Both the position numbers and the translations under genes were made by a program. DNA of 62,987 nucleotides, filler included, from Perkinsus olseni (lineage: Eukaryota): assembly GCA_013115125.1 (NCBI GenBank). It is 5 parts of 5 records of this genome, joined end to end, with 100 filler letters (N's around TTAATTAATTAA, not from the genome) between each part and the next. Parts side by side here need not be neighbours in the genome. Positions count along the whole stretch, not along the records: positions 12,696 to 25,230 come from JABANN010000788.1; 4 more parts are not named here. One strand, given 5' to 3'. Positions 5,869 to 36,537 of this stretch are shown here, piece by piece. Below the pieces are notes generated by a model that was given only the letters and a program-made list of their open reading frames with translations, was not told where the DNA came from and made no database searches. Numbering within the stretch: position 1 is the stretch's first letter; each line of letters starts with the position of its first letter.

Positions 5869-7366
5869 ATGAGCTCACCAGATGTGTCATCATCTAGCCC
5901 TTCATCACTGGAACTCGTTTTCAGGGCAGCAGGAGCAGCGGACGAGGGCCACAACGCAGTTCCATCGGTGGTTCCCACCTCGCAGCAGCCTACCAGACCA
6001 GCGTTAGTTGCGGTTCCTGATCACATCCGGAATGCCGGTAAAAGAATAAGATTTGACGAAGCAGTTATTGCGGAGCATGATTTGGAGAGGTACTATGGAC
6101 TGCCTTTCACGAGTCTGCTGGGTATCTTCTGTCGAAAGCGGTGAGATATAAGTTGAATTATGTTAGTAGTGTTGCAGTAAGCTATCTCACCGGAGTTTGT
6201 TCCATTTTGCTGAAACTACAACATCAAGGGATCGATCCGGGAACCTTTCGACTACTTCAGAGGCACTCGTATGACTATCGATGAGCCCGATACCCCCTTC
6301 GTTCGCACGCCCCTGAGCAGCGGCGAGTCGAGCGAGGATTCCTCCTCCACGCATGGCGGCCGTGGGGCCCATATTAGGATGGGAGAAGTATCGAGTGAAG
6401 CTCGCCTTCAGAATTTAGCCAACGTAATCACGGGGGTCTAGAGAGTTTTTTGGTTTTTCCCGGAAATTTTCGCTCATTTTGTTAATTTCTGGTCTAGCAT
6501 GTGGAACGTGAAAAATATGTTTCATCTTCCTTGGTTTTTCATTCGGAATGAATCATTCCGTTGTGTTAAGATCTATTGCTTGGATTCATCATCAGTATGT
6601 TGCGCTCATTTCCGTGACTGGTTTAACGCGCAGGGAAATCACGTGGCCGATGAAGATGAAGGTGATGCAGACGGCGGGGCTGCCAGTTTGAGGATAGACT
6701 TTTCGACGGCTACGGCTGATGAGGCGGAGGAGTTAGAGAAAGCTCGGAAGGCTCGGGAGTTTCATGAGAAACGCAGACGACATTATAACGAGATGCAGGT
6801 CATACGGGGGCCTCGCTTGATGGTGAATGAGCGGAGTGTCTAGTGATTTTCCATGAGAATTCGCTGAGTTCACCATTGGCTCAGTAGGGTCCACTGTAGC
6901 ATCAAGATTGCGAAAAAAATTGCCTAGCGGCGTGTGTGTGAACAGCTATTGAGCAAACCAGAGGCATGTCGCAGTCGTGGCGTTTTATGCTTTTCTCCGA
7001 GGATTGTTGGTCGTTGTACTGTCTACAGGATATTCTGCATTAAATTCATTCGCTTGACTTGGCGGTAGAAGCGATAGCCTTTAAAACTGAATTTTATATC
7101 GGTCACGGCCGTTATAGCGAAGGCCTGCTTGTGGTGAATCATAGCCCAGAACGCATCTTGCGGAAAATAATAATAATTTATGAAGTTGCGGAGAAATTGT
7201 GGGGGGATTTTTTCCTTTTCCTGCTCTGCAGATGGTGCGTGCGTTGCGGGAGCAAGGGCGTTTGGAGGCCTCTGAAGAGGAGGAGGACGATCAGACTGAG
7301 CCGTCTGATGGTGCTGCGAGGGATCAGACTATGGAGAACTGTCGGCATCTCGGCAATCCGTGTTGA
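5869..7366 (+). CDS. Protein phosphatase 1 inhibitor-2 (IPP-2 family), 4 exons (~5869-6089, 6261-6423, 6634-6798, 7232-7366)
   Basis: Spliced product has KRIRFDE (RVxF-type), MTIDEPDTPF and FHEKRRRHYNE, the I-2 signature motifs; GT-AG junctions keep frame. Confidence 0.85.
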
Positions 7367-9652: not shown

Positions 9653-10136
9653 ATGCTTTCCGTGATCCTCGCCATCGGAGCTCTCATCAGCGTCAATGAT
9701 GCGTATCTGCCGGACGGCAACTTTGCGGGGAGGGTTAAGTCCCCCTTCCTCTCCGTCGATTGTATCTTCGACCCTGGTTCTGGCGTCTCCTCCGTGCACA
9801 TGGTGGTTGGATGTGATGAGGGGAAACCCGCAGCTGTGGGACGTTTCGAGATCAAGCCGTCGACCTATCCGCCCAACCTATACGTGAACACGGATTTCAG
9901 GAACCCGAGTTACATGAGTACATACTCACGGACATAAGCTTTGCAGTTCAGCAATCATAATGATTGCTGAACTGCAAAGCTTATGTCCGCGGCGTGGATT
10001 CCTGAGGGACGATTTCGGGAGGTTCGAGAGGATCAAGGGAAAGACTATCTTGCACGATGATTATCGTGTATATTATGCCAGGGACAGAAAGTCGGTTCTC
10101 CTGACGAGACTTACTAATACCTCTGATTCGGTTTAG
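9653..10136 (+). pseudogene. Small secreted protein, paralog of 11422-11856, frameshifted by a 40-nt fold-back insertion
   Basis: Aligns end to end with the 144-aa paralog (IGALIS.N, HMVVGCDE.+PAAVGRFEI, DDYRV.YA, LLTRL) once 9920-9959 is removed. Confidence 0.85.
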
Positions 10137-12695: not shown

Positions 12696-12801
12696 GGGCC
12701 CTGAGTCACAATCGCTACGGAGAAATTAGAAAAAAACTTCATGTGATATAATTTTGTGGACGGGTTTATTTTCATACCACTCCTTTCCCAACTCTGTTCA
12801 G

Positions 12802-15800
12802 TCGCTAAGTTGACAGCTGATCTGAAGGCGAAGGATGCTGAATTGACGGCAGCTCGGGCGTCCGTGCAGAACGCGGAGAAGAAGATTCAGGAATTCGAAT
12901 CTAAGGTCGACCACTGAAGATTCCATTTGTTATCGGAGCGAAGTTTTTTTCAGGGTGGTTTGGCACGTAGTGATGCAGAAGCACTTCGGGAAAAGATACA
13001 TAATCTGGAGGAGGATCTGAAGCAGGCTAAGGTATGCTCGTCAGAGGTATCGGGTTCGAATCCCAGAGGCTGTACTTTTCTTCAGAGTGAAATTGACTTA
13101 GCGAACGCGAAGGCCGTGGAGGCCGGCAACGCCCTGAAGGACGCCAAGCAGGAGTACACGAGAGAGTTCATCAAGCGAGGGAAGGAGGCCGAGGCTCTGG
13201 TCGCGGCGAGGCAGGAGAGGGAGAGGGCGGTGGATGAGATGAAGAAGGATATCGAGGAGCTTGATAAGAAACTGAAGGAGAAAGATGAGGCTCATGCCGA
13301 GACCAAACGCCAGCTGAGCGCCGCGGAGGAGATGGTGAAACAGAGCGAGCAACGGATAAAGGCGTTGGGAGAAGAGAATGAGAAGTAGGGCTTGCCGAGG
13401 GAAGAGCATGTCTGTGCATGCGTGCTGCCAAATAGATACCAAACTTTGTTCACATCGGCGTCTTCGTCGTCGTCGGCTTCGCCGGCTTCTGGGAAGGAAG
13501 GAAAGGAGAGTGCGGCGACCGCTCCGTCCTCGCCGAATGAAGTTGGGAAGTTGAAGGCTCTACTGCAGCAAGTGAATGAGAGCAAGAAGCTTCTTATCGC
13601 AAGGGAACAGGAAGCGGTGAGTTTTTGAGGAATACAAGATTTGTCGAGATTGCAAGATTCTGCGTAGCTTCTCGAGTGTTCTCGTCATAAAGCGAGGTCG
13701 TTGGGTCTGGAAAAGGACCTCAATCGGCTGGAGGAGCGGTTGAGACAACAGGAGGATCACATCGAGAGAATGAGGGAGGCGGAGGAAAAGTAGGTCTTAG
13801 CGGAGCGAAGTTTCTTGTCATTTTTCGCGATGGTACAGATACTCGCTGCTGACGGCCAAGGTGCAGGAGTTGTCTATGTACGAGTCGGAGTATCAGCGGT
13901 TGAAGATGGATCGTGGTGAGAGCGCGACCTATTTTGTCGGTGCCGCGGGTCAAGCTCGAATACTCTTCAGAGACCCAGCGGCAGAACCTCCAAAAGACTC
14001 AATCTGAGCTGGATGCAGCCAAGGAAGAGAGCAGCAAGTTGAAGGCCCAGCTCAATGAGGTCAGACAATTTTCCTTAACAACGCACTATGAGAGCTTATA
14101 ATAATAATAATATCATCATCATCATCGTCACTGGTATATTGATGATAGTAGTAAGATGAGTTTTATGCGCATGTAGCGCACAGGTGTCTGAAGGGAGTTA
14201 TTTTTTGGGATTAAATGCCCGGCCAATAAATTGATCCTATGCAATGCAGCTCACCGTGGGGAGTGATAATATACAGCTATCTACCTTGTAACCCACAGGG
14301 TTAGCGACTCATTTCATATCTGGGGTTTTACTCATTTTTCGTGCTATAGCCGTGAGCGGAGGTTGAGGCTCCATGCTAGCCTACGCCATTTGCAAAGTGT
14401 AGATTGAGGTTTGTCTCTAATTATAGTACTTTCAGCGAGGGGCCGAGTATGGTGGATACTTCTACTACCGAACTAGATCGTACGGAGCGCAGTCCATCCT
14501 CCTTCAGAGTACTGAAAGGTTCCGCCATCAGAGCGCGGCGATGAAGGCGACGGCAGCAAAGGCTGAGCGGTTTGAGAAGCTGCACGCTGAGTTGACAAAG
14601 AAGTAGGGGACAATGTGTGAGTTGCATGGGTCGACCTAAGATACGTTAGATACGCTAACATGGAGCCAGCAGAGGTGGCCAAGCTGAAGGAGAATGAGGG
14701 TAAACTAAAGGCTGAGCTAGCACAAGTCCACGCGCAACTGAAAGAGAAGGTAACGAGGAGGATAATCTTCGTAGTTGAGGATAAAAAATAAGCTCATTTT
14801 TCCGCTTATTCTGGTGACTCGGAGAATTTCGAAGTCGCTGCTGGCCTGATCTCGGACGGGCGCATGGTGAAAGCGTCAGTCGAGGTGCAGCCTCCGGTAG
14901 TTGGTCAGATGAGGCGTACGGAGTCAGAATTTGTGTGGACGGGATTGGTGTCTTGCGGTTTTAGAGCGCCAAGGTGGAATCTCTGCAGAGTGCATCGAAG
15001 GCATTGCAAGCTCGGGCGGCCGAACTCGCCAATCAGGTAATGGGAGAGCGCGGTCTTATTTGTTAGTCTGCCTGCACTCGTGATGAGTGGAGGTAGAACA
15101 CGGTTTTTCTCCTCCCGGGGATTGAACCGGGGACCTCAGGACGCCCGTCTCTGTGGCTACTGCACGACGTCTGCGAGTGTGGTTGTCCTGCAGCTCGGCC
15201 ACCATAGCTAAAATTAAACTCTTGTTCATCTCGCGGCCCACCATCCGGGCCGGCTATGGGCGATTATTTGTATCGTGCAGGTCCGCACCAATGAGGCTAA
15301 CATGAACACTGTGAAGCAGGAAGCTGAGAAGAAGGCGAAGAATCTTGAAGAACAGGTTGGCCAAGGAAGATACGGTGAGTTAAGATTCCCTCGACCTCTG
15401 TCAGTTGTCGATGAAAGTGCGGTTGCTGAACCAAGAGCAGGGGATGCGCAAGCTGAGAGACAACCGCATCAAGGATCTCGGAGAGCAAATGAAGAAGATG
15501 GAGGAACAGTTGAGAGAGGAGGAGAAGAAAGTCAAGACGGCTGCGGGCGCAGCATCAGCTGCAGCAGCAGAGCAGCAACAGGCTAAGGTATGAGCCGTAA
15601 TTTTGTGGCGCGCGAGAACTTCTTGGTGTAGGCGCAGACGAGCTCGGCTACCCAAACGGCCGGAGTGGCTGTCAGCAGCGCTCAGCCGACGACGAGCCGG
15701 GTGGTGAGGGACAAGCGGAATATAGAGTTGCTCCAGGGGTCAGCTAAGATACTGCAGGTAGGGCTACATGCATTGTGCGGGGAGTATCGATTGGAGTGGT

Positions 15801-16491
15801 ATTGATTTGACTGCTCTCTACGCCGGAATACGAGCTGTTTTTTAGGAGTATCGAATTCAGCTGAGCAAGGCGTTAGTAGCATTGAAGAAGTCAGGGGAGG
15901 GGTCCCAGCCGGCTGCTGCCGCGGCGGCGATGGGCGTAGGCGCGCAAAAACGGAAGCATCCCGAGCAGGACCCAGAGGGGGGGGGAGGGACTGCTGGAGG
16001 GCCTAATAGCAAGATCAGTCGTGTGGAGAAACAGGAGCAGGCTGGAGAGAGTAACGAAAGGAGTGGTATAGAGTTGAGTGCATGTAAATACTCTCAGGTG
16101 GTGGAGTTGCATCGTCGACATCATCATCCAGCAGTGCAACAGAAGCAACAGCAGCAGCAGCAACTACAGCGCCAGGTGGGGGTCTTCGCCAGAAGGTTCC
16201 TATCGTACTTCTAGTTTTTCTGAAGAATAAATTGTTATAGGAAAACAAAATCCATCATTGTTGCAGATTACCCAGCGCGGCCCTGATGTGTTTCATCGTA
16301 TGATGACGGCTGTAACTTATGAATGCTGCTATTCCTCAAAGCCGCCAGGCGGCGGCGGCCGCCTAGCAGCAGCTCCTTGAAGTGTTGTTATTCCCTCAGA
16401 GCCAACGACCACCACCACGGATGCAGCAGAGGAAGACAAGTCAGTAGGGGAAGAGCAGCACCCGCCTCCTCCTCCTTCGACCACGGAGTAG
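12802..16491 (+). CDS. 5'-truncated multi-exon long coiled-coil protein, possibly TPR/Mlp-like nuclear basket protein
   Basis: More than 12 E/K/A/Q-rich exons; KYANMEPAEVAKLK resembles a late Mlp/TPR coiled-coil motif; low-complexity tail with NLS-like QKRKH...KISR. The gene is clear, the family call is tentative. Confidence 0.6.
15107..15211 (-). pseudogene. tRNA-derived relic in an intron
   Basis: Reverse complement has A-box-like TGGTGGCCGAGCTG and T-arm GAGGTCCCCGGTTCAATCCCCGGG; acceptor stem does not pair. Confidence 0.6.
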
Positions 16492-16621
16492 ATGACGACG
16501 ATTCGTTAATCTAGTTTCTCAACGTACGGTATCGATCTTGATTCATTACGTATTTCACTGCACCCAGGTGCTGTGTTGAGTTGACAGGCTTTCTAGTCGG
16601 TGGCGTAGTTTTTATCCCAAA

Positions 16622-17999
16622 ATGCTCCGCACTGGTGGTGGCCACACGGCAGGAGCATCCACGCCGTCCTCCTCCTCCTCGTCGCATGCCGCTCGAGGGG
16701 AAGCCTGTTTCCAGAGAATGGAGAAGTGCAATGCTGAGGTGCTGGCACTACTGTAATAAGGCTGCTGCCCCACCGTTCGCTTGCGTTGGAGAGCAACTGA
16801 CCATTGGCCCACCAACTAACTTCCTGCGGTATTCCTCACCACTAAGGAATCTACTGCCTCGTATTACCCGGATGATCAGCACGTGGAGAATTTTTGTGAA
16901 ATGCTGAAAATATTTGCAGAGGGCGAAAAACTCCTCGGGGGAATCTTTCAGCGGCTGAGTTGTTGATGAACGCTGTCGTCCGGAGCTGCATGGGCCGTGG
17001 GAAGGATTCTTGCCTCAGCTCGTGTCGCCGTCAGATACGGCGCCACGGTAAGGCAGCTGCTGGTGGATTATGATGGCAATTTCGATAAGGTGAATGGAGA
17101 GCTGTACAGGATGGGTACCGATATCGGCGCCCGCCTGCTGGACGAGTTCCTTATAAAGAGTCGAGTGCCGCCTTGTCAGGACTTCAGAGACGCCTGTGAG
17201 GTGATAAGGATGATAGATGTTCCACCCGGGGATCGAACCTGCGCCTGATGCATTTTAGGTTATGAGCAAAGTAGCACTGAAGATGTATCTTGGTGTAGCC
17301 GGAGAGTGTGTCGACTGGGACAACAGCACAGAGGGGAGGAAGTGCCGGCTGGTAGAGCGACAGCTTCGCTCCACCCTTTTTTCCTCAGCAGCATTGCACG
17401 TCCGTGCATGACACTCCTTGCAGGTGCTTCCAGTGAACCCTCTCAATGACTTTGTAGAGCTGCCCATGGACCTCAGACGCCAGCCACCGGATGCTGTCTC
17501 GCAAGGACAAAGCGGACCTATTCTGTGAGTGTCTGGTCCTCGTCGCTGTGCGGGTTTCCTTCGATCTCCCTCGTACCATAGCTAGCATTGATGTTTGGTG
17601 CCCTTCTCTTCCCACACCATCGAGGTGGGGTCTGCTGGCGGGGAGGGCGGCCTGGACATACGAACTGTCGTTGCGAAATCAACGCCCGGACCGTGGCAGT
17701 ATGAGTCGGGTCGTCTCAGGTACTACAGCAACATCCTTTGCGGTGTCATCGCGGGAGCGATGGAGCAGCTGAGGATGAACGTACTGGTTATCGGTCGGTT
17801 GTCTGAGAAGGATATGGTGGTCATGGTCAGGTTGCTGTCCAATTCGAGAGTGATGTTCTGCTAGGGGACGAGACAACAGTTATCAGCCTTGAGCTGCTTG
17901 AGGTGAGTAGTGTCGAGGCTGGGGATCGAACCCACGACCTTTCGGTTACAGATCGTGTCTGATGAGATCCGTGAAGACTCTGATAGCGATGCTGAGTAA
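16622..17999 (+). CDS. BET3: TRAPP complex subunit Bet3/TRAPPC3, multi-exon
   Basis: NAEVLALLYGATVRQLL, MGTDIGARLLDEFL, KVALKMYLG, NPLNDFVELP, YSNILCGVIAGAMEQL. Confidence 0.92.
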
Positions 18000-18089
18000 A
18001 CTGTGAAGAACCGTTTCCTGGTATTAATCGGTTTCCTCTTCTCTATGTAATGCGTTTTGCGTGGAGAGATCTCGCGACACAACCGCTGT

Positions 18090-18205
18090 GTAGGAGCCTC
18101 CTACTAGGAGGGGGACAGCATCACTATGATGTGACTAGGAATAACGGTGGGGGTGTGTAGGAGGGGACAGCATCACTATGATGTGACTAGGAATAACAGT
18201 GGGGG
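18090..18205. repeat. ~50-bp tandem duplication; first copy carries a 14-nt palindromic scar
   Basis: GGGGACAGCATCACTATGATGTGACTAGGAATAAC occurs twice. Confidence 0.9.
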
Positions 18206-18251
18206 GAGAGTCGAGAAGCTGATGGGGCATATCTAGTTGTGTTGATTCATA

Positions 18252-19400
18252 ATGGGTAATTACTTGTGGAGTCCCAAGAAGGTCGCGTCCAAGGACTACT
18301 TCGAAGAGTTCATATTCGGCCAGAATGGAGTTCATCACGTTATCAAGAGGTAGTCTGCCGTCTCAGACACTCCCCAGCTTGTCACCCATCCACCAGGTCC
18401 TTCACCATCGCTGCCAGCAAGAAGGTGGCCCCAGCAGAAGCGGAAAGCTTCAAACAGTGAGTTTCAAGCCCCCGGTCTCTCCAGGGGGTCACTGTAGCGG
18501 TGGTGCTCAGGTTTGTTGATTTGTCGGCCAAGTTCCTGTTGGTACATCATTTACAAGAGGATGAGCATATCTTTCCGTTCTACAGGAAGCATTTGAAGGA
18601 CGCTACGGCCCTGGAAGGGGAAGTAGACGAGCATGAGGAGGTAGGCGCCGCCTTGCGGGCTCGGAGTTGGCCTAGGTCTTCTATGCCGCTGCAGGTCTCG
18701 AGACTGTTGGTGGATCTAGAGGAGAACCTGAAGCAGGACAAGATCAGCGATGCGCAGAAAATCTGTGAGGATTTCTCAAGAGTGTGCGGTTGACGTGATT
18801 GCTGTCTTCGCAGGTGCTGCGATCCGTGATATGATGTGTGACAATGTGAACGGTCACCTGGTGAGAGAGGAGAAGATCCTCACGCCAGAGGCCTTCCGGG
18901 AGCATGGTATTTCGGGGCCTTCGCCTCTCCTGGGTGGTGGACGTGGCGTTTCCCTCAGCCACTGAGAAGGAGGTGCGCGATCTGTCTACTGCCATACACG
19001 GCATGATCAAGGACCACATGAACAAAATGGATAGTCTTATCTTCATGATGTAACAGCATGGGAATCAAGCTCCACCCGGAGGACCATGGTGATACTATTA
19101 GTTATAATATGAACGACGCCGAGAAGGCCTTCTTCGATGAGAGGATGCCCTGGATCATGACCTACTTGATCTTCCCTATAGCCGCCAACAAGAAGCCCGA
19201 AGTGTAAGCATCATTCGGATGCTGTAGTACTCGATACCTCCTGACAGGTTCGCTCACTGCGCTTTCCCCCGCTACTCGAGTCCAGATAGACTGGGATGGT
19301 ACGGTGAATGCCCGCCAGGTGAGAGTGGAGGTGCCCTTAAGCGTTGTTAAGGCTCCTCATGTCCTCAGTTCCTGCCGAGCTCCCCACAGACCTCCAATAA
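18252..19400 (+). CDS. Hemerythrin/HHE cation-binding domain protein, multi-exon
   Basis: HHLQEDEHIFP, DEHEE and HLVREEKIL match the HxxxE...H...HxxxEE ligand pattern. Confidence 0.8.
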
Positions 19401-19621
19401 GGTATCGTAAAGATTCCTGATCATCACGAGCAATGGTGTATACAGCACTACCTTGTTGCTACTCGATGCCCGATGGTATTCCCGTCCAGACGGCAGATAG
19501 CCCCGACCCGCAATGCGGGACACGCATCTAGCGTTACTCCAGTACTAGCAGTACCGAATAGTTGTGTTAATATCAATCTTCATTGAGGTGATCTCTTGTA
19601 ACTATATAGTTGGTGGGGGAT

Positions 19622-22600
19622 ATGTCCAGGCCAGCTGCTGCGACGGATGGTTCTCCAACGACGTCATCGCTTCGGTCTTCCTACAGCGACGATACTAGTA
19701 GCTGCTCATTCTTCTCCTCGTCGTCGTCTTCGAGCTCTTCCTCCTCGGACTCGGGTATACCTGAGTGGGGGGAAGGTGAGCCTACACACTAACACATAAT
19801 GGTGTTCACCCCTGTCCTCAGTACCGCTAGTCGTGCCCTCTCCCGCTGCTGGTAGTGACGGCCTTTGCCGAATCGGTGATTCAGAATTCTCAGGGCTGAG
19901 AGGTGACGGACACAAAATGGGATCGCTTGCGAATCCAAGCACCTCGTTGCAGGATCGTCTCGGACAACCAGTCTGCTTGCTTGGCCTGCTGCAGAAGGGA
20001 AGCTGAAGTCATCAGTGGAGCTCTCAAGCCTCAGGCTGCATCGAGGCGCCATCTCAGTGTCCAACGGCCAAAAATTGATACTGCGGGATTGCGGTATGGA
20101 TGAATGCAGAGTGGGCGTTGAGAAGCCCTTGATCTTTCAATGACCTTGGCTGTGCTCAGGTGTCCGTTGGCGACGGTGCGGAACTTGTTCTTGAGAGGTG
20201 CAAGTGGACGTCGGGCCTCCGTCCCGCTGTTCACGTGTGCTGGTCGACGGCGCCGGTGGACACTCCTCCGCGGATAGAGATCAATGACTGTCATTTCTCT
20301 GATATGCACGTAGCTGTATCACTAGAGGTGAGTCGGACCGCTCTACAGTGGAATCACTACCTTGACGAATGATTCTTTTCCCGTTTGCATCGCGAAGGGT
20401 GGAGCTCACCGTGGTACCTGCTGTCCACGACCGAAATATCCTAAATGGGCGCGTTGGAGGCATGTCTTGGGAGGGACATATATTTGTTTAACACTTTCTG
20501 TGGGCGACAGTCGCCCGTCGACTCTGTGAGAGGCTCTCACTCACAGCAATTCCCTTGAAATCGCCTATGGCCCGACCTTCCCTATGGCATGCCTCACCTC
20601 ACCCTTACCCTAGCCTCGCATCAATCATTGGGATCTAGCGTGATGCCCTGCCAGCTATCGGCCAGGTATAGACTTTCGCGATGCACTGTAGCAAGACATG
20701 GTCAGAAAGGGCCCATCAGTGGGATGCTTCGGATGCATCGCATCCTCTGACGCTCCATGGGTGACCAAGCACCAAGCTGTAGGCTGAGGACCAAGGAGAC
20801 TCCTATATTCCAGGCCGTCGATGTTTCGGCAATATACTCGGGCTCTGATGAGGATCGGAGGAGATGGGAAATTCTTACTGAGAATTTGAAGGAGATTGTC
20901 CCGTTGTTGAAGGGAGGTTGAATGTTGGTATCGAGCAAATGAAGATTGTGATTGTTTCTAGTGCTTCGGCTAGTCTCATCACTGGAGCAGCAGTGAAGGT
21001 CCCAGGTGTCGAGTCTGAAAATACGGAAGAAAGCAACTTGACGTCCTTGACAGAAGAACTTGTGTCGATATCACAGTATGCCGGCGTTTTCGTTCTCTCC
21101 CCATCTGGACGACCAATGATCACTCTTAGTAGCGCTGACGGCCGTTGAGGCAGCGCCCTCATTTAAGAACTAATTACGGTTCTTCCAGACGCCGGTGGCC
21201 CGCCCTAGTAGCTGTGGGGTTCAACTCTCCTTGGGCTTCAGCCAACTTGCTCATTCCCAAAAGGGCGGCTAAGGAAATTATTATTAGTGGCGCATGAGTC
21301 AACCGGTTCGGTTCCCCCGGTCGAGCAGACCGCTGGCTTGCCACCTCCGCAGCAGCAGCCTCAGCTGACGTTCTACCGGACGGTCAGCGTCCAGAGCTAC
21401 CGGAGCCGCCGCGTGGTTCTCACCCTCAAGAAAACGCCCAGGTCCGAGCCGGTGACCTGCCGGCGGTCGATGCTGCTAGGGCCAACGAGGCACTTGCTAA
21501 TGACGAGATCATTTTCGACTCAAAAATTTCGAGATGGCAACCCCTATCAGGGCCTCGTTCAAGGCGGAAAAGAGGTTTTGCCTGCTTTCGCCGTTTCCTT
21601 CCTGAAAGAGAAGCTGGTCGCTCAGGCGCTGGTTCCTTCCCAGCGCCCTCCAAGGAAGAGCCCGCGGAGGATTCAGGGGTAGCCGAGGCCTTGCTGAAGG
21701 AGTTCGAACGAAAGTTCAAGGTCCAAGTACCTGCCAGATTCCTTGTGTCTTCAAGGACATTCGGCGAACTCAAGGAGCATGTCCGGAAGATGAATGCGTC
21801 TACGTTGCCAACCATCGGGCTGGCCGCCAGCGGCTGGCGGCAAGCGCAAGATGAAGATAGATCTGAGCTCCGGTGAACTTGAGGTGGATGATGCCCCTGA
21901 GATGCCGCAAAGCACCACATTCCCGGCTGCCAATGAAACCTACCTGGATGGGGCTCTAAAGAGCGTCCCTCTGAGTCCTCCCAGGATCGAGTGTCTTCGG
22001 GAAGCATTGGATGGCGCTCTTCCTCCGAAGTCTCGACTCGCGGATGGAGTGTCATTATCAGTTGGAGAAGCTCCGTCTGTTCTGGAGGGGACTGCTGTCA
22101 GAGTGGAGAACTTGGGTCTTTCCGAATTTCCTCGTCTTGTCGTTTCGGGTCGCAGACAGGTGTGGCCGTTTGCCCAAGGGTTATGAATCGGACAATGTTC
22201 AGAAAGAGTTCGAGAGAAATGTGCTCGCGTGTATTTGTCATCACTTTTTCTCTTATCAGAATGGGATGGAGATCAGCACTCTCTGCATGTTTCAGTTAGA
22301 AGCCTTCCCCTCCACTGACGGGGTGCAACAGCGCACTATACCGCCAGATTCTGTCCCAACCGTTGGACTGCATCACTGCACTTTCACGGACATACGCGGA
22401 GCAGCGATCGTTGTAGCCGTACACATCCGATCTCCACTAGTAACGTTATACCGCTACTACGCAGCTTATCCTTGTTTCTCTCAGGCTGCTGACCAAACCG
22501 ATTCTTCTGATAAGGACTCCGTCTACCATTTCAACTTGAGTACTCTGATGGTAGCTGACGAGTCTTCCCTCTCCTATGAGAGATGTCCCGCTCGATTCGA

Positions 22601-23477
22601 GGTTTCCTTTGGAGGATCGAAATTGCTACGACCGTTCAGGTGAGGGACAGCTCTGTGCTCGGCTGCAGGCAGTGCTTACCCCATAGACTTCTCGTTATTC
22701 TACAGTTTCTCGTCGTGGCCCCCTCCCTCCGGCGAGTATCTCACACCACGTCGGGGATCATCAGGACGAGGGGCACAGCAAGTGAAGGTGGGTTTAGCCA
22801 CTCCTCATGCGCACTTAGGAGTTCTCATCAGGCGGTGGTATCAGCAGATCGCTCGCGGTTAGAGATTGTATGCCCTCCAGTTGCGTTCTCCTCGGGACGA
22901 AAGAGGGCAGGCAGGAAGGCGTCGTCGTCACAAGTCTCGGTTTGGATGGAGACGCTCGGATTGAGCGATGAAGGTGTGAATGGGTTACAATGAGTGCGGT
23001 CGTAGCGACGCTTCAGCAGAGCAAGCCGTCTAGGATCGGTGAGGGTCCTCCTACTGCCGCTAATGATACGTAAAAAATCATTCGGAGGGGATTCGATTGC
23101 GTTGATTGAGGTTCGCTCGTGTCGAGCTGTCCCTGCAGCATAAGAGATAAGCTATCAATGCTAGATATTCATTTCCTCGGACACTAATCGGGCGAATTCC
23201 TGCTGTGAAGCCGTGGCCCGTGGCTGTTGGTTCAACCGGGTGATGTGGTTCAGATATCAACGCTCTATCACGCGAGGCCATCATGTCAGCATTTCGGAAG
23301 CGCAGCTTGTCGGTCCACCCCGATAAGCGAGGGGCGTCGGCATCCCCGGGAAGCACTCCAGCCGCTGACAACAGCAGCCCAGAAGATTTCATTAGCCTTG
23401 TAGAAGCGAGAGATGGATTACTCCAGTGTTTGGCAAGTCGGCGTGATACCGCGAAACGTAGCAGGCGGCGGAGGTAG
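19622..23477 (+). CDS. Multi-exon protein with beta-helix-like repeats and a C-terminal J-domain
   Basis: Last exon AFRKRSLSVHPDKR...FISLVEARDGL (HPD motif); internal exons IEINDCHFSD and GLHHCTFTD; ~2-kb intron ~20328-22297. Exon chain approximate. Confidence 0.65.
20720..21880 (+). mobile_element. Decayed LTR-retrotransposon-like fragments (protease-like and gag-like) inside an intron
   Basis: CPVVEGRLNVGIEQMKIVIVSSASASLIT resembles retropepsin (hhDSGASxSLI with D and G lost); YQGLVQGGKEVLPAF resembles retrotransposon gag; stops and frameshifts present. Confidence 0.5.
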
Positions 23478-23676
23478 TAGTAGTAACGATGTTTCTTCCG
23501 TTTGAAGCCTTGTGTTTCTCAGTAGGAGAACGAGAGTCGTTCTTTGGGGCGATGCCGAGATAAATGGGAAACTATAAGTCACATTAGAGGGAGGTGACAG
23601 TCGGGGTGGAGTATGCAGGGGTAAAAAGTGTTCGATGCTTCCGGCACTTCCGGCAGCGGTAAGCGAAAATAGTTCC

Positions 23677-24430
23677 TTAATTCCGATGACCAATGGGAAT
23701 CCCCTGGCGTGCGCCCTGTATATCGAACAGCTTGGCGAGCTTCTTTTTCGTGCACTTAAACGGTTTTCCATCCGATGCTTCTCCGGGGCGCTGATTATTT
23801 CTCCTGGTCACCATAAGAGCCCTCAGTCGTGCCAAATTATACACGTCTCTCGAGTGGTGCCCACAAGGGGCGACAACGCACTCGTATGCCTCCATCAGCT
23901 GTTCTTGGTTCTGTGTAATGGCCTTCTCCACACACTGTGTCTTATTTTTCATGTTGACTTCGACCTCGGCGCTGGCACTGCAGTCTGGTAAGCGCATGAG
24001 AGCTGAGTCCACCGGAGGGTATATGGAGGTGAGCATCACCGTGATGGAGGGGAATACTCACCTATTGCTTCCCAGGTTGATGATTCTGTGGCGGAAAGGC
24101 TTGCCCAGCTGGAAAGCCAAGTGTCTAGGCTGAGCGAACAACTGTCGGCTTCTACTATTAGACTCACCGACTTTACAAAGACGGTGGGAGCTGGAAAGAA
24201 ATCGTTCTAGTCAATCGTGGACCGTTTAGGTAAAGAGCGCCCGATGCTGGTGCTGGGTTGAGTACGCAGACAGCGTGTTGAAATTGTCCCATAAATATAA
24301 ACCACTTGTTCACGGCGTGGTAACTACGGTTGAGTGGAAAGACAGTCGACCAACATCAAGCCGCATCTCTTACACGTAATACTAATAAGACTCATAGTCA
24401 CCCAGCTTCCCATATCTCGTCATGAAATCT
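23677..24430 (-). CDS. Hypothetical multi-exon protein
   Basis: 120-aa ORF 23677-24039 plus upstream GTGAG...CAG-bounded segments; no recognisable domain. Confidence 0.35.
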
Positions 24431-25230
24431 CATCCTCAGTGTGCAAGCTGGAAAGTTAATGGAGCTCGAGTACGGTAATGCTACAGCCTCGGGCTCCATC
24501 GCGAAGCCGACCGAGGAAATTGCAAGAAGGTTCGCAAACGTGATTCCTTTTGCGAGTCTGATGGAGAGAATAAGACATGATTTTGAAAGAGGCGGCATGT
24601 CGGACTACATATGTGGAAAGCTGATCGAACATGTCGAATCTAGCCCTCATGGCGGCTACAAGGCAGGGAAAGACTGGATAAAAGAATTCGTGAAGGACAA
24701 CATGAATACAGCCTTGAATCTACTACGACAGTACGGGCGTTATTCCAGGGAGGGCGTGAAGGATTCTACCTCCCGGTAAGCTACTCAATACTCTTGCGAG
24801 AGTCGTGTGAGATTGTGGTCATCACGGTGAGTATCTTTATTGTGTTAGTTGTGATGTTGATGTATTAGAGGATGAAGTGCCGAGTTGCTTCACTCAGTCA
24901 ATTCGTCGAAGGGTTGTGATGACTGCTCACCACGTTAGAACGTGGGGACTCTGATTAATATCTTTCACCAGGTCGTGAAGTACCGGGACGGGCGCCGCAG
25001 TAAGCTGAGGTGGGTTGAGCCACTCCTCAATGAGGAACCCCCCCATGCACGATTAGACAAGCCTTTTAACGGCGACCAAAAGTCCGAAAAGGTCGCAGAA
25101 AGTTGAGTGAAATCGATCAGATGTACAGTAGGGCCCTATCGTCGGCATCTCCGACGTTCCCGAGATCCCCGATTGACGAACGTGACATGGGTGAGATGAA
25201 TGCCAGAAGCAATGAACAAGACTAATGGGC

Positions 25231-25330: not shown

Positions 25331-26057
25331 ATTGTCATTCTTGGATTCAACAATGTCATTCTTGTCTGCTCACGTGTCAAACTTGCACGGGAAATGGTGT
25401 AGTATTCCCTCCTCCTCCTCCTCCTACTGCTGCTGGCTCTGTCCCTATTTGGGATTACTACCAAGACTACCAGGGTGTTATCTATGTTCATGGCTCTCTA
25501 ATAAGCACTACCATCTTCATTGGAATAACTAGTTGGAATGAGTATATTGGCATTGATAATGTATTGTTGATTGTTGTCTAATGACATCAGTTCATCCCAC
25601 ATGACATCATTATCCTAAACTCTGTTATTTGCTTGCCCCTTCTCCGCCACCACTTTGGGTTCACAGATAATAACAACAGCATTATACTCCTCTCGATATT
25701 GTATCCTAGTAGTAGTCGTGTAAGTGTACCATCATCATTATTATACAGTCGCCCCTGTTCTCACTCCTCTTTGCTCTCACTGATATCATCCTTACCAATG
25801 GACTCTACATCATCGTGTTACTCAATCAGGGATATCGTGGGGAGGCGAGCGAGATTGATGTGATAACATTTCACGCAGTTCGCATGAAAACAGCATCTTA
25901 CGGGTAACAACAAGAGCTGTGCGCATCTACCCATCGACAGCGTCATACGAGTGTCATCTCCAATTGATCATGCTTGTAATCTCACATCAGTACGTGTCTC
26001 CTATTGTGTTGTCAATCTGACTCACTATCCGCTCGCAGCTTCCATTACTTACCACCA

Positions 26058-26577
26058 ATGGTAGGTTAGCCACATCATCATCATCGTAGTAGTAGCGGGT
26101 TGTTGATCATCTTCCTTTTCCCAGTCCGAAGTTGAGGAGACTCTGAATCGTATTAAGACCCATAAAGGCGTGTCGGGTATCGTCATCGTCAATCATGAGG
26201 GTGTATGATGTCGATGATGATGATGATGTTGATAACATTACCAATCGTGTCAGGTACCCATACGCTCGACATTGGAACAGAAGTATACTTTGCAGTATTC
26301 TGCACTCATAACCCAGCTAACCCATAAAGTACCCTCTTTTGATTATTATTAGATTCTTATGGTCTTGTTATTATTATCAGGCCAGATCCGTCGTTCGAGA
26401 CTTGGATCCTCAAAACGACTTAACATTCTTGAGGCTTCGATCGAAGAAACATGAGATTATGGTCGCGCCCGATAAGGACTATATTCTCATCGTTATTCAA
26501 GTAATTGTGGTGGGAGTGCAAGTTATCACCATCATCATATTCAGGATCCCCATGCTGACCAGCAGCTCAATGCTTGA
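26058..26577 (+). CDS. DYNLRB: Dynein light chain roadblock/LC7, 5 exons (first coding exon is ATG only)
   Basis: [24 protein letters not shown]...[34 protein letters not shown]. Confidence 0.95.
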
Positions 26578-26734
26578 TGATGATTGTGATGATAATTATA
26601 ATTCATGATCGTTCGATGTTGTGTTTGATAGTCCGTAGTTACCAAAGATGTCAACTGACAAGTTGGCACGTGCCTGGTCAGGAGAGTGTTCCCCCGATAA
26701 TAACTGCATAACTCAACCCCGACACTGCTGGTTA

Positions 26735-28601
26735 TCAAACTTTACATATATCCTCAGGACGTAGTTTCACTTCCTCCTTGTTAACTTCTAATATTACTGT
26801 ACATTCACCAGTGGTAACATCCACATTCTTCAATACCCCAAATTGATCCCTACAAAGTATTGATAGTAATACTGATGATGATGATATTGTTGTTGAACTA
26901 CCTGTATTGTCCAAGTACAACTTGTATTGTTCGACCATTAGCTGGTGTAACTGTTTGTAGATCTTCTTGATCCAACTCCAATACATCACCCGTCTTCAGT
27001 ATTTTAACATGGCATACGTATGGTGATATTACCTTCCTTATCTCACCTTTACTTTTATAATATTTACCCTCACATAACCCTTTATTCAGGACCTGCATCA
27101 TTATCATAACAGCATTTAGACAGACAAAGCATTGTTCAAGTGTCGTGCCTTCATTAGTATTACCTTGACAATAAGACCCTTCGTCAACCATGCATCGGAT
27201 GCTCTTTCATCACCATTATGATGATGATGAGCGGATTCTTTCTTGATACACGAAGTGGTGGCTGGTGTGATCATGTCCGAGTCATCTCTACGCTGTTTCT
27301 TCCTATTAGGCGAAGAACTACCACAATACATCATACGTTAGTAAATTGTATATATTACCTGGGGTACTCATCATCATCAATTGCCACTACCACATCTTCA
27401 TCTTCATCTTCTTCCATTTTCATCCAAAGTTCAGCCTCATCTTTAGCTGCCTTCACCGCGGCTTCCTCCAATACATTCACTTCTGATAGCAAGTACACGA
27501 TAATAATCATCATCATCACCTCCTCCACATCGTTGATATATAGTCGTTGATATTACTTGGTGTTATATTTTGTTGTTTGGTTGATCTGCCGGCATTCCTC
27601 TTGACATCAATTAAATTCATAACCTCCAGTTCAACTTTATCCGTATCATTCTTCCTATCGAGAGTGGTTGCTTTGATCTCCTTAACATCATCTTTCCCAG
27701 CTGATACTGATCATCACAACAACAACAACAAAGCTTCATCACCACCATCATCATCAACACCCTACTATTACTACCTTTCGCCATACGAACTTGTTTAGCT
27801 ATACGCCTTTCCTCCTGTTTCTCTTCGTCAGCTTCTTGCTTCTTATCAGCTTGATATTTCGCTTCTCGCTCCATTCTCTCCCTGATAGATACACACCCCT
27901 TCCTGCTATCATCATCATCATCATCATTATTCAGTACTAGATACACACCCCTACCCTAGGCTACTACCTGTCTATATACTCTAAATACCATCCCCTTTCA
28001 GTTTTCTCTATCTTTGCTTTCCCCGTTCTACCCAAATAGAGTACAAACCCGGTGAGAGTACACCAAGCAGTAGAGTTCATATGAACATGTTGCTTATCTG
28101 AAACATAAGGTAAGCAGCAGCGGCAGCAGTAATGACGATAATAGTAATAACATGCTGATCGGAGGTGTTACCTGATATTAGATCCTGATACACCTGATTA
28201 GCCAGTACCCGTGTTGATCTATACCGTGTTGATAATAGCCTCCTGAAGATGATCATCATGGTCATGGTGGTCATGGTGGTGATATAATCATTACATAAAG
28301 GTTGATTCGAACTCTCGTGAGAAATCATTCATGTATTTACCAGGTCTCTGTATAAATAACTGCATCTGCCTAAGATGCTGCTCTGAGGTTCTGAGATCAC
28401 AACAGCAGCATGACGATGACCACCGCCACCACCACCGTAATAATGATGATGTTGTTGTTACCTGTGGCATTTGAATCCATTCTCATCTCTGCATTGCTTC
28501 TGACACATTTGACAATACCATTTTAGTTTCTGTAGACCCTTGGCCTTCATCTTATTATCCAACCATTTTGGTGTCCATTTCTCGGCCCTCCCTTTACCCA
28601 T
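26735..28601 (-). CDS. KIN17: DNA/RNA-binding protein KIN17, multi-exon
   Basis: KAKGLQKLKWYCQMCQKQCRDENGFKCH zinc finger; VLANQVYQDLI; C-terminal WLTKGLIVKV...YYKSKG...LELDQEDLQTV. Confidence 0.95.
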
Positions 28602-28802
28602 CAGCAAGAAGAAGAAGAAGAAGAAGAGAGGATGATGACAACAACACTAGGATAACGACATTAATAGTGATATGGAACATCATCCATCTCAACGAACACA
28701 ACTGATACTGTATAACAATTTTGTGGCGCGTGACGGAATCGAGGGTTGGTCGGTGGGTCGTCGTGATGTCGTCGTATCAGTGTTGTTGATATCTCCCTAG
28801 TG

Positions 28803-30380
28803 ATGTCATCATCATCATGGTCGTATGGATCACAACAACGTGCTGTTAACAGGAATTGTAGTGTATTTGTTGGTAATATACCCTATGAGGCTTCAGAGGT
28901 ACTAACACAGCAGAAGAGGAGGAGGGCGATTTATGGTAGTATATGGTGGTCGTCGTCGTCAGGAGGAGTTAAGGGAGATATTCAGCAGAGTTGGGCCGGT
29001 GATATCATTCCGTTTAATGAAAGATAAGGAGACAGGCATGCCCAAAGGGTATGGGTTCTGCGAGTAATACTTATGTATTACGTTTGGTGTGGTATTAGTA
29101 ATGATAATAGGTATCGAGATATGGAGACTGCATATAGTGCCATGAGGAACCTATCCAATGCTGATTATGGTGGTAGACCATTACGTGTTGATTGGGCTGA
29201 TCATGAATTAAGGAATTCTGAAGCTGTTACTAAAGTAATGGTACTACTACCCGCAACTACTGCCCTATACTGATAGTAGTAGGTATTAAGAACATCGAAC
29301 GCTGAGGTCTCTGAAAGAACTGAGAAAATAGTAAAGGATAGGCTGCAGGTGATAACAACGACAGTTGTTGTATCAAGCCAAGCCGAGCAGCATAATCATC
29401 ATTCTAGGAGTTTAGAGGTAAAATAACTGATGAGACTATCGAACTGGCTGTTAGTGATATGCAACCATTCAGGGAGATATCAACATTAATTGATGTAATA
29501 ATAATGACAGTCACTGGAGTCTCACCATTATTATTATTATCAGATACTGTCTAGCGAACAAATAGTACATATATTGGCGGAGATGCAGAGATTATCATTA
29601 ACGGATCCAGATACTACTAAAGCGTTACTAGCAACACAACCTCAGTTGAGAGTGGCTATAGCATTCGCATTAGTAATAATGAAAATAATTCTGTATGGTC
29701 ATAATAATACTATTACCATCTAGATACGAATCAACGTGATAACCGACCCTTTTCGTAGAGCTAATACGACAACACGGTCTGCTGGCACTCTGATGGCTGA
29801 TGGGAGTACTACGACGACGACTAATAAAAGACAACGTAAATATTAGTATTGGTAGAAACATATGTCGTACTCAGTGATACCTTAGGATTGTCAGTGGATA
29901 ATAATGGTGGTCATGATAATACTTCACCACAACCACCGTGGGCAAGAATGCATCATCATCAACATGATGAAGATGAAGGTAGTATTGATTGTGATGCTTG
30001 TAGTAACGATGATGTCGATCAGATGGGCCCAAACATGGTGTTAGTAGTGATAATGAGTCCTACGATGTAATATAGTGTTATTATTATTATTTGAATAGCA
30101 TAGCATTAGTGTAGGTTACTCAACTGAGTAGCGAGGAGAAGATGCGCGTCATTGAACAGTTCTCTTCGTTATCAACTGATGAGATATCAGAATTACCACC
30201 GGAGGTTAGGGAGTCAATGGAGACACTCGTAATAATAATAATAGCTAACACCACTCATACTACCACTACTATTATGAATAGGTTCGGGAGTGGGTGGTAT
30301 CACAGCAACAACATCAGCATCATCATCATGGTCATGAATGGCAGCAGGAAGGTGATGCCGAGGGTACCAATGAGCAGTAG
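28803..30380 (+). CDS. CSTF2: Cleavage stimulation factor 64-kDa subunit (CstF-64/Rna15), multi-exon
   Basis: [44 protein letters not shown]; hinge-like LLATQPQL; C-terminal [12 protein letters not shown]. Confidence 0.9.
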
Positions 30381-30526
30381 TACACGTACTAGAAGGAGGA
30401 GGAGAGTAATAATATTGTTGATGATAGTCTGAGTATATTTGCCACTTTCTTACTTATCACATCATTGTAGTGTTATTACTCTGGTTATCATCGTCAGTAG
30501 GTGTTGTTATAGTCTTCACTGTTGTA

Positions 30527-31131
30527 ATGGACACATCAATGGCCACAACAGAGGGACCACCATCCGTGGTCATGGCCCCTCCACCACCACCACCACAATC
30601 TAATGGGATACAACAGCAGCAGCATAATAAGGACTATATAGTACAATACAAGAGGACTAGACGTGGTAAGTATAGTAATACCATAGTCCTAGTAGTATTA
30701 CTATTGTTATGGTATGTAGGTAGAGTAAGAAGGATTGTAAGAGAATCTTATCTAAGGGATGATATATCCTGTGGATTTATAGAATGTGATTATTGTAGAG
30801 AAGATGATACCACAACTCCCCATCATCATGATACTACAATGCAACAACAAGAAGGGGAAGATAATGCAGTTATGTCTGTTGAATATGGTAATACTACCAC
30901 TACTACTAGTACTAGTAGTAACACCAACATCCATATTATTATTATCAACATCAGGTATACCGGTATTATCCCCGCATATTGTTATCATACCAACACCATC
31001 AGTCTGTATTAAACAATTGGACTGGTTATGTGATTCCTGTGATGTTGACGGTTGGCATCTGGGTAATGTAGTTATAACCTATACTGCATTAAATGTAATA
31101 ATTATTCATGCGTACTAAGTATCAACATCGC

Positions 31132-31164
<33 letters not shown>

Positions 31165-34100: not shown

Positions 34101-34239
34101 AGCATTTCCCGAGTAACAGCGTTCTTAGACGTCATCCACCACCCAAAGAACAACAGTTGAAGGCATTGAAATCCTTACTTGAGAAACAAGGTAGTAACGT
34201 TACTTTATAGTAGTATCATGATTGGCATGGTCATCATTT

Positions 34240-34284
<45 letters not shown>

Positions 34285-35397
34285 CAGGTGTTAAAGGGTT
34301 CAAGTTTGGTAGTAATAAGGAATTATCCAATAGTCTCAACAGTACAGTGTGTACTAGAAAGGATGATCCTTACTTCAATAGATTAGTTAGAATAATGACT
34401 ACTCGGACGATGAACCAAGCACAGTAATAATAAGACGAGGGGATAGATAGTGACTCTCATCATACACATCATCATCATCATCATCATCATCATGTCACTC
34501 AGCATCAATCACTCAGGTATTTCTGTACGGGAGAGGTTGAGAATGGTATGTTTTCCCATTATGGTTTGGCTATGGGGTTGTATACCCATTTTACCAGTCC
34601 TATTAGACGTTATGCTGATATTCTAGTAATATTATCACTAGGCATCATCCTTTGGAACATGGACTACTAGCAGCAACCGACTATGTTAGGTACATCGTCT
34701 ATTAATGGCATCTTTGGGTATCAGACCATTACCACAACAATTGAACGATAAGACAGCTGTTACTGAACAATGTGATAAGATCAACTTCAGACATCGCAAT
34801 GCACAATTTGCAGGACGTGCATCAGCTGAGCTACACACCTTCCTGTAATAATAATCATCATCATCATACTAATGACTATTCACTAACACTTGTATACATC
34901 AGATACTTCAACAAGAAGGGGCCATGCATCGCCGATGCTGTTATTACTCGTGTTAGAGCAGCAGCACCACCACCAACAACAACAGCTAATGTGAAGCAGC
35001 ATAGACAGCATCATAGTGCTGGTAGTTTACAAGTTGTAGTACCAAGATTTGGTATTGATGGTGTATGCAAATTGGAGAATTGTGATGAGAATGGTGAATG
35101 GAAGTGTAATGAGGATAAGATGATAGCAGTTAATGATAAATTGGGGATAACCCTTGCTGCATTCGACCATATTCAAGTTAGAATCATGGCTGATAATACA
35201 GACTTCAGGTAGTAGTACTACTATGATCACGAGGTCATGTTATTATCCCTTATGTTAGATTCAAGACAGTTATGACACTTTTGGAGAAATCCAAAGCAAA
35301 TGAGATCGATACGTACGAGGAGGCGGAGGGCAACAGAAAGAAGGTCGATAAAGAGATGTGTCCAGATAGAATAAGTAGGGATGATAACGTCGCCTAG
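30527..35397 (+). CDS. DIS3: Exosome catalytic subunit DIS3/RRP44, multi-exon
   Basis: CR3 [19 protein letters not shown] region [65 protein letters not shown]. Confidence 0.97.
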
Positions 35398-35606
35398 TGG
35401 TACAAATAATAATACCAATTCTTATACGTCAAATGTTTCATAGCTCTTAGTGTTGTGTGATGAGTGGATAACATGATGCACTAATGAGACCACTATCTAC
35501 CACCTTCGTCTGAATAACACAATGCTGAGGGTAGTGTTAACAGAGTTGAAAGAAGTTTTCCTTATCATGTAGTATCAACATGTACCAACAAAGTGTCTTA
35601 TCAATA

Positions 35607-36473
35607 TTATCGAGAAGGACGTGAATAAACACCCAAGGTTCTTCCGATGTAATCAATGTTACATCCTTCCCTTATCTTATATGTTAAATTATAATCCAAT
35701 ACCATACCAGTTATATTCTCAATAAACTCCTTTACTTCATCAAACCTTAGTAGATGATTCCGTAGTCCTAGTATTATCACATGATTATTATTACGGTAAT
35801 GGATTGACATGGCCAATCCCCATTAATTGGTCACTCCAGCTTATTATCATACCATATCTTGCCATACTATTCCAATTACTCACCTATCATGCAAATGAAT
35901 GAAATCCACTTATATGATGCCTTGCATCACTATTACCAGTGTTTGGGTATATTGTTTCGGTATGTGCTCTGCCACCTCAATACTCATTACCCAATCAAAT
36001 ACTCTTCCTCCCTGCTCAACTGATATAATTGGTGAACTTAGATCCATGTACGATACACGGCCGTGAGTAATCTATCAAAGGTGTGGCAATAGCAGCAAGA
36101 CTGGGAGTATCATTACATTGGTGATATCATTAATACCGTCAAATGCATATGCGTTTACTATACCAGTATTATTAAACCATTGAGAATAATGTCCACCACC
36201 AGCTCCAAGATCTCCAATACTCACTACATCACTATCAGTGTGGTTGTAATGTGGTATTACAATATGCTGCATGATACCCCTCAATAAACCTGTATCTAGA
36301 CCCCATGTGTCGAATGTTGTACGTTTGAGAGCTTCAAGATTATCGAATGCACCTGACCTGAACAACAACATCATTGGTGATTATAATGCGGTATATAATT
36401 ATGGTAGTACCATTACTTTGTATGATAGTAATATTGCACGGCACGATATGATGGATGGGGACGTCCATCATCG

Positions 36474-36537
<64 letters not shown>

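Follow-up and report, generated by a model that had tools for sequence, protein, structure and literature searches.

A possible introner-like family of short Perkinsus olseni introns that resemble decayed tRNA 3′ halves

INTRODUCTION

Several very short introns of Perkinsus olseni, a perkinsid alveolate that parasitizes shellfish, are almost wholly decayed copies of the second half of a tRNA. Within the window (the whole stretch of 62,987 nt of P. olseni DNA that was analyzed, filler included), there are at least six such tRNA-half units in 62 kb, five of which pass a leave-one-out profile search and one of which is borderline; beyond these six there are two or three weaker candidates, in the sense orientation. 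Related copies, about 60 to 70% alike, lie in at least four unrelated genes. Our leading reading, which we hold tentatively and rate at a little under an even chance, is that the units are an old introner-like family of short Perkinsus introns descended from tRNA 3′ halves. The observations suggest that stray tRNA pieces are raw material for introns. The origin of new spliceosomal introns has long been debated, and the clear cases so far are introners of the transposon type.

RESULTS

The 49-nt intron of the Bet3 gene

The window consists of five pieces of about 12.5 kb with spacers (N/TTAATTAATTAA) between them. The second piece holds a Bet3/TRAPPC3 gene, whose exon 2 is 100% identical to the NCBI entry 'Trafficking protein particle complex subunit 3 [Perkinsus olseni]', 93% identical to the TRAPPC3 of P. 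chesapeaki, and 89% identical to that of P. marinus. Its structure was established from spliced contigs of four public runs (X7, X8, X10, and X12; the record of one states RNA, two others are probably RNA as well, and the fourth is of unstated kind), which were placed on positions 12696-25230. The features of the gene are as follows.

16622-17999, plus strand: Bet3/TRAPPC3 gene of Perkinsus olseni, 7 exons
16753-17034, 17201-17258, and 17352-17423, plus strand: Bet3 introns 1 to 3, junctions in contigs of 4/4 runs
17525-17719, 17781-17830, and 17903-17951, plus strand: Bet3 introns 4 to 6, junctions in contigs of 4/4 runs
17903-17951, plus strand: unit A, 49-nt Bet3 intron, GT..AG, phase 0, junction in 4/4 runs
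17911-17951, minus strand: decayed tRNA 3′ half of unit A, from loop remnant to discriminator A

In every one of the four runs, a single contig omits all six GT..AG stretches, and the computed spliced translation agrees with database protein P0001. At unit A, the contigs skip 49 nt, from 17900 to 17950, and the cut is movable by 2, which gives the GT..AG intron 17903-17951. An earlier note, made from the sequence of the window, had proposed an intron with exactly these borders and had suggested RNA sequencing as a check on the junctions; the spliced contigs of all four runs bear the borders out, and the check, which covered 12696-25230, confirmed the 17903-17951 junction. Given both the contig junctions and the agreement of the spliced translation with the database protein, we regard the intron as real and its borders as correct. 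The NCBI also holds a 'partial' P. olseni TRAPPC3 model of 290 aa (P0002) with a correct core and unrelated N- and C-termini, which is probably a mis-spliced gene model.

Unit A begins with GTGAGTAG, continues with a tRNA-like 3′ half in antisense, and ends with the acceptor AG. Read on the minus strand from 17951 to 17911, it shows the succession of parts that a tRNA has: the remnant of a loop (6 nt, CTGTAA), one strand of a stem (5 nt), AGGTC where the variable loop would be, a T-arm whose stem pairs at 4 of 5 positions and which contains an exact B-box (GGTTCGATCCC, 17922-17932), a 7-nt acceptor strand, and an A at the discriminator place. These parsed features agree with the series of loop, variable loop, T-arm, and acceptor strand that the earlier note had read in the reverse complement. 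They also agree with its placement of the 3′ splice site inside the tRNA-like sequence: the acceptor AG lies within the loop remnant and is complementary to the two bases with which the anticodon-loop equivalent begins at its 5′ edge. The tRNA likeness ends at the exon border. The loop remnant, which had been called Asn-like, fits a Tyr-type tRNA (a 7-nt loop that contains GTA, followed by a 4-nt variable region) equally well.

No tRNA gene was called in the window by ARAGORN, and Rfam gave no match there at the gathering threshold. Focused and truncated-mode Rfam scans gave no tRNA match at E ≤ 10, the best match being a tmRNA 3′ end (E = 2.1). When the ARAGORN thresholds were lowered, 49 low-score calls appeared, scattered through the window, and were treated as noise. 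Units A, C, and I have no 5′ half: the sequence on the far side of the loop remnant belongs to the exon and shows no pairing with the stem strand. A functional tRNA gene is ruled out by the negative ARAGORN and Rfam results and the absence of the 5′ half. Unit A is a decayed tRNA half and not a tRNA gene. Among database open reading frames of relatives that might run through intron A, there was no candidate in the sense frame and one in antisense, which did not score.

Relatives of unit A in other genes

The earlier note had paired unit A with an intron of an aminotransferase gene on another contig. That remark is right, since the pieces of the window are joined by N spacers.

51214-51266, plus strand: unit B, 53-nt intron of a class I/II-type aminotransferase gene, frame change 1->0, crossed by P0006

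Database protein P0006 crosses this junction as ...REHL/DELRR... (the slash marks the junction), which supports unit B as a predicted intron. Its tRNA-like part, an antisense acceptor strand and T-arm with an exact B-box, lies at the 5′ end of the intron. Units A and B share a block of 26 nt with 23/26 identical positions (blastn), and a degenerate pattern of this 26-mer has only two sites in the window, namely those in A and B, where 0.00 are expected; no metagenome sequence matched the shared 26-mer in a pattern scan. Thus, the block that led to the description of the two introns as near-twins is real, but over the whole length only 35 of 57 alignment columns are identical, so that the description is overstated. 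A second proposal, that a GTAGT common to both introns is the donor, holds for the aminotransferase intron only, because the Bet3 donor is GTGAGT at 17903, the shared GTAGTG begins 4 nt downstream of it, and the junction can shift by at most 2 nt.

The nearest relative of unit A is unit I, which is closer to it than unit B is: from donor to acceptor, 34 of 50 columns are identical. The units other than A and B are listed below.

17201-17258, plus strand: unit C, 58-nt second Bet3 intron, junction in 4/4 runs, exact B-box
54012-54061, plus strand: unit I, 50-nt GT..AG unit (candidate intron), upstream of an ATG at ~54210
15111-15141, minus strand: unit D, antisense tRNA-like T-arm region inside the predicted 244-nt intron 15037-15280
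6213-6260, minus strand: unit G, antisense tRNA-like half, 3′-terminal in the predicted 171-nt intron 6090-6260
13032-13085, plus strand: unit F, probable 54-nt intron, sense tRNA-like half, exact B-box, a weaker family member
51613-51644, plus strand: unit E, sense tRNA-like T-arm region, exact B-box, in the 279-nt aminotransferase intron 51395-51673
54371-54425, plus strand: unit J, predicted 55-nt intron with a weak sense T-arm-like core, frame change 2->0

In unit C, the antisense tRNA-like half occupies the 3′ 39 nt (about 17220-17258), and the 5′ 19 nt are other sequence. The host of unit D is a TPR/MLP1-like gene, in which intron 15037-15280 is predicted from frames only. Unit G lies in a protein phosphatase inhibitor-2 gene, identified by Pfam IPP-2 matches of plus-strand exons (E = 3.3e-6 and 0.0065); the alternative of a 46-nt minus-strand intron with unit G in sense was rejected, as Pfam puts the IPP-2 host on the plus strand. 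In unit F, the tRNA-like half is followed by a T-rich trailer and CAG; contig pieces of all four runs begin at 13084, and the junction is not among the 15 listed. P0006 crosses intron 51395-51673 as KFKK/LPAGK, and unit E within it may be a decayed whole tRNA. The family membership of unit J is doubtful; its alignment with unit F scores 13, against a background maximum of 10. The sample behind the family is 62 kb of DNA, with listed junctions for A and C only and a contig-piece boundary only for F.

Evidence for tRNA origin and common descent

The exact B-box GGTTCGANNCC occurs 5 times in the window against 0.38 expected (13-fold), and counts of 5 or more were seen in none of 100 shuffles. All five exact B-boxes (units A, B, C, E, and F) lie within confirmed or predicted introns. 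The 12-mer GGGGATCGAACC, with at most one mismatch, is found 4 times against 0.22 expected, every time on the plus strand. When one mismatch is allowed in the B-box, there is no enrichment (14 observed versus 11.95 simulated), so the loose B-box alone proves nothing.

In the leave-one-out profile search (nhmmer) over the nine candidate units A to G, I, and J, five of nine were recovered (A, E = 1.2e-4; C, 1.6e-3; I, 2.9e-3; D, 3.6e-3; B, 5e-3). Unit G was borderline (E = 0.054), and units E, J, and F were not significant (E = 0.26, 0.35, and 1.7, respectively); the top match outside the nine units was at E = 0.2 to 0.86.

The spacing of B-box, variable loop, acceptor strand, and discriminator in canonical tRNAs is well established. 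At the discriminator place, 20 nt after the start of the T-loop, 8 of the 9 units have an A (P about 1e-4). At the variable-loop place, AGGTC or AGGTT stands in four of nine units, and seven of nine have a start of AGG there. The T-stems are paired at 2 to 4 of 5 positions. With B-box, variable-loop motif, T-stem, and discriminator all found at tRNA spacing, the units read as tRNA-derived, that is, as pieces of tRNA pseudogenes.

The units also resemble one another. Alignment scores are 17 for A-B, 17 for A-I, and 14 for B-C, and 10 for A-C and 8 for C-I; among A, B, C, and I, scores range from 8 to 17, and four of the six pairs reach 14 to 17, above the maximum of 10 in a background of 55 pairs of other RNA-confirmed introns (mean, 3.3). 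Units B and C have the same two T-stem mismatches, which suggests common descent and not separate decay. Outside the tRNA-like part, blastn found no similarity between copies.

Orientation, size, and boundaries of the units

All six better-supported units are antisense to their host gene (A and C in Bet3, B in the aminotransferase gene, D in the TPR/MLP1-like gene, and G in the inhibitor-2 gene) or, for unit I, to the plus-strand GT..AG unit that frames it; unit I adjoins a plus-strand gene, just upstream of it. The sense-oriented units are F, E, and, doubtfully, J.

Four units (A, I, B, and F) take up an entire intron or GT..AG unit of 49 to 54 nt, and unit C largely fills its 58 nt. These are ordinary sizes: 10 of the 11 other RNA-confirmed introns compared measure 44 to 54 nt, and the 11th measures 72 nt. 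The units leave no room for an earlier intron. All but 8 nt of A and of I are tRNA-like. The tRNA-like part includes the acceptor AG in A, C, and I, and it stops 4 to 8 nt short of the donor in A, I, and B. The element itself thus supplies splice sites, as is asked of an introner.

On the side that corresponds to the 5′ side of the tRNA, the intron ends 21 nt before the T-loop in A, 21 in C, 22 in I, 23 in F (in sense), and 29 in B. A distance of 21 to 23 nt corresponds to the edge of the anticodon loop, and four of the five short units end there. Such clustering is as predicted for an insert that brings its own splice signals. The earlier note had argued that the insert contributes splice signals, and this stands as far as the acceptor within the tRNA-like part and the clustered boundary are concerned; it does not extend to GTAGT, which is not the donor in Bet3.

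Units D, E, and G sit in longer introns of 244, 279, and 171 nt (15037-15280, 51395-51673, and 6090-6260), which indicates that such pieces also land in existing introns. The motif is absent from 13 of the 15 listed junction introns of the same genes. The 244-nt intron also contains, nested around unit D at 15085-15135, a GT..CAG unit of 47 nt that may be a former or alternative short intron.

Unit C in a second Perkinsus species

P0005 is a Logan-derived open reading frame that agrees with P. marinus in its exon residues and continues without a break across the orthologue of intron C (...DACEVMFMDMLSPGIEPAPYPSGYEQS...). Its read-through contains ...SPGIEPAPYPS..., compared with ...HPGIEPAPDAF in frame 2 of the P. 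olseni window, and the P. olseni core CCGGGGATCGAACCTGCGCCT likewise translates to PGIEPAP in frame 2. The unit C core CCGGGGATCGAACCTGCGCC is thus common to P. olseni and a P. marinus-like species. On this comparison of sequences, intron C with its tRNA-like core is older than the split of the two. Since unit C is present in a second Perkinsus species, the family of tRNA halves is old and not the result of a recent burst. When metagenomes were scanned for relatives of Bet3, 144 stretches matched the pattern, but not one was confirmed.

In a hand alignment to the back-translated P0005 peptide, the 21-nt core of unit C shows no differences at 14 determined positions, and the flanks require no fewer than 9 substitutions across 30 aligned positions, in addition to 7 indel bases. 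The difference between core and flanks (hypergeometric P = 0.02, from one intron pair and a back-translated peptide) is suggestive of constraint on the core.

The same open reading frame touches another Bet3 intron. The third, RNA-confirmed intron (17352-17423, 72 nt) starts within GGTAGAGCG, which has the look of a tRNA D-arm in sense, and its stretch ACAGCTTCGCTC is retained as 'TASL' in the P0005 read-through. This intron is possibly a 5′-half-like piece.

DISCUSSION

Proposed origin of the units

We propose the following route for the descent of short introns from tRNA 3′ halves. The source piece would be a DNA copy, about 42 to 45 nt long, of a tRNA 3′ half from the anticodon loop to the discriminator, with a few trailer bases; our guesses for its origin are a truncated tRNA cDNA or filler DNA at a repaired break. 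The piece would land in a gene, mostly antisense to the host, and would be tolerated where both of its ends can be used as splice sites. In antisense copies, the two bases that form the 5′ edge of the anticodon loop would, as their complement, give the acceptor AG, and a GT within 4 to 8 nt past the tRNA 3′ end would give the donor, so that splicing would remove the insert alone.

We infer that the insert created the intron and did not invade one, for two reasons. The first is room: in an invaded intron, the former branch region and acceptor must have vanished with the frame undisturbed. The second is register: random trimming would not repeat the tRNA border in four units and in both orientations.

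Several observations speak against the introner-like reading. The copies are only about 60 to 70% alike; Rfam and ARAGORN are negative, the loose B-box is not enriched, and units F, E, and J fail in the leave-one-out search; unit C is old; and units D, E, and G lie in long introns.

With still less confidence, we suggest that DNA copies of tRNA 3′ halves could be a recurrent source of new perkinsid introns, perhaps of several percent of them, or thousands genome-wide. An insert of this kind, ~45 nt long, would be a ready-made minimal intron at birth: in antisense, with an acceptor from the anticodon-loop edge and a donor from the 3′ trailer, and in sense, with a GT, a T-rich tract, and an AG.

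Other explanations for tRNA-like sequence in short introns

The best-surviving alternative, which we nevertheless consider unlikely, is that the units are passive debris, pieces of tRNA pseudogenes that arose in tRNA gene amplification and landed in pre-existing introns. They would have survived there because a compact genome offers no other tolerant sites, with a deletion bias trimming the introns to about 50 nt, and the antisense bias would reflect the selective loss of sense copies, which would attract RNA polymerase III or the enzymes that process tRNAs. This explanation accounts well for D, E, and G, which lie within introns of 244, 279, and 171 nt, for the 19 nt of other sequence at the 5′ end of unit C, for unit E if it is a decayed whole tRNA, and for the age and divergence of the family, and it draws on the many tRNA gene copies of Perkinsus described in the excerpted text of PMC3706591. 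It fares worse with the short units: A, C, and I are tRNA-like right up to the acceptor AG, and A, I, and B are so from 4 to 8 nt past the donor, which means that branch site, tract, and acceptor must all have been replaced in frame, several times. Random trimming, moreover, would not leave the same tRNA boundary in four of five short units.

Selection on the units themselves is a further explanation, which we regard as improbable and which could be added to either origin. A T-arm-like core might be retained as a functional intronic element, for instance by belonging to the 3′ splice-site region, with a set spacing from the acceptor, or by binding TFIIIC as a B-box. The PGIEPAP core of unit C, identical in P. 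olseni and P0005 between diverged flanks, would fit such a role, as would the T-loop at 21 to 22 nt from the acceptor in A, C, and I. Set against these are the single intron pair, aligned by hand to a back-translated peptide, behind the P value of 0.02; a core that, read by eye, is unlike the usual branch-site consensus; T-stems that have decayed to 2 to 4 of 5 pairs; and the absence of the motif from 13 of the 15 junctions listed. If the core is conserved, the question arises what role a T-arm-like hairpin has in a 50-nt intron.

Chance, meaning GC-rich short introns that happen to hold a T-loop-like word, is very improbable: the lack of enrichment of the loose B-box (at most one mismatch) and the lack of an Rfam tRNA match would fit it, but the exact B-box (5 versus 0.38), the 26-nt pattern (2 versus 0.00), leave-one-out E values down to 1e-4, and the discriminator A in eight of nine units do not.

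Comparison with known sources of introns and of tRNA-like repeats

If the units do descend from inserted tRNA halves, how do they compare with known systems? Dinoflagellates also carry introners, and introner-like elements occur in fungi. The introners of Micromonas, Aureococcus, and Amoebophrya have terminal repeats and target duplications, according to the excerpted text of PMC7789003. The units share with introners that related sequences form whole introns in unrelated genes, apparently with their own splice signals. Known introners, in contrast, occur as near-identical and often lineage-specific copies, whereas the units are 60 to 70% alike, are old, and have a tRNA half as their putative source. 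Many known introners also have the terminal inverted repeats and target-site duplications of DNA transposons, whereas informal inspection of the units noticed only AG/GT.

Short interspersed elements (SINEs) derived from tRNAs keep a complete tRNA-like head, including both the A and the B box, which is followed by a body and a tail. Like them, the units are dispersed tRNA-derived repeats, often intronic; unlike them, the units comprise a 3′ half plus at most 8 to 19 nt, without A box, body, or tail. A tRNA-derived SINE is ruled out, as the short units cover tRNA positions about 32 to 73 only.

Introns have also been gained where breaks were repaired with filler DNA, or through inserts of organelle DNA, as in Daphnia and in introns derived from mitochondrial DNA. 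There, too, a short foreign piece becomes an intron through a usable GT and AG, but those are single events with varied sources, whereas the units have one recurring source and a common boundary.

The primer-binding site of LTR retroelements is a stretch of ~18 nt that is complementary to a tRNA 3′ end including CCA, starts with TGG, and adjoins the LTR. It is ruled out as well, for the complement in the units extends over ~41 nt to the anticodon loop and is preceded by TAG or AAG, not TGG. No LTR-like repeat was found near the units by blastn.

Within the genus, tRNA genes of P. marinus have been amplified to 349 copies for Leu, 116 for Gly, and 23 for Tyr, and its Dada transposons, 4.7 to 11 kb long, target tRNA genes, with the A box as insertion site (Kojima and Jurka 2013, PMC3706591, excerpted text). 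The amplified copies are intact tRNA genes, and half-tRNA intron pieces are not described in the excerpts of that paper (PMC3706591). With hundreds of copies of some P. marinus tRNA genes, tRNA-derived DNA is plausible as an abundant source in the genus. In the excerpted text of a 2024 review of transposon-derived introns (PMC11282704), 'tRNA' occurs only in unrelated senses and 'SINE' never. Full-text literature searches brought up no account of tRNA-derived introns or introners, whether in Perkinsus or in other organisms; the supplementary tables of introner surveys may list perkinsids.

If the proposed origin is true, half tRNAs are a different source of introns, one that requires no transposase and is tied to the unusual amplification of tRNA genes in Perkinsus. 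The T-arm would then be a sequence tag for dating intron births across perkinsids, syndinians, and dinoflagellates.

Other features of the window

Next to Bet3, at 18105-18205, between its stop codon and the next gene, a 52-nt unit is repeated 1.9 times with a 95% match. The highly covered neighbor gene (18252-19900) encodes a protein with HHE motifs that look hemerythrin-like by eye, and it has nine RNA-confirmed introns of 44 to 54 nt, none of which is tRNA-like.

In the first piece, a near-perfect palindromic hairpin of 74 nt at 9922-9996 resembles a miRNA precursor on both strands in Rfam, below threshold (mir-5595, 50 bits versus a gathering score of 100), and may be a small inverted-repeat element. 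The GC-richer part of the same piece has a 313-aa open frame at 949-1890 with matches to bacterial extracellular solute-binding domains (SBP_bac_1, E = 5.8e-8; SBP_bac_6, E = 8.8e-7), which could be a transferred gene or contamination.

The third piece (25331-37845) has a GC content of 0.36 to 0.41, compared with 0.45 to 0.56 in the other pieces, and carries Dis3/Rrp44-like exons. Finally, a 352-aa open frame without a Pfam match at 45900-46958 has weak LicD/fukutin-like neighbors in a protein atlas (score of 0.88, below the guide value of 0.9).
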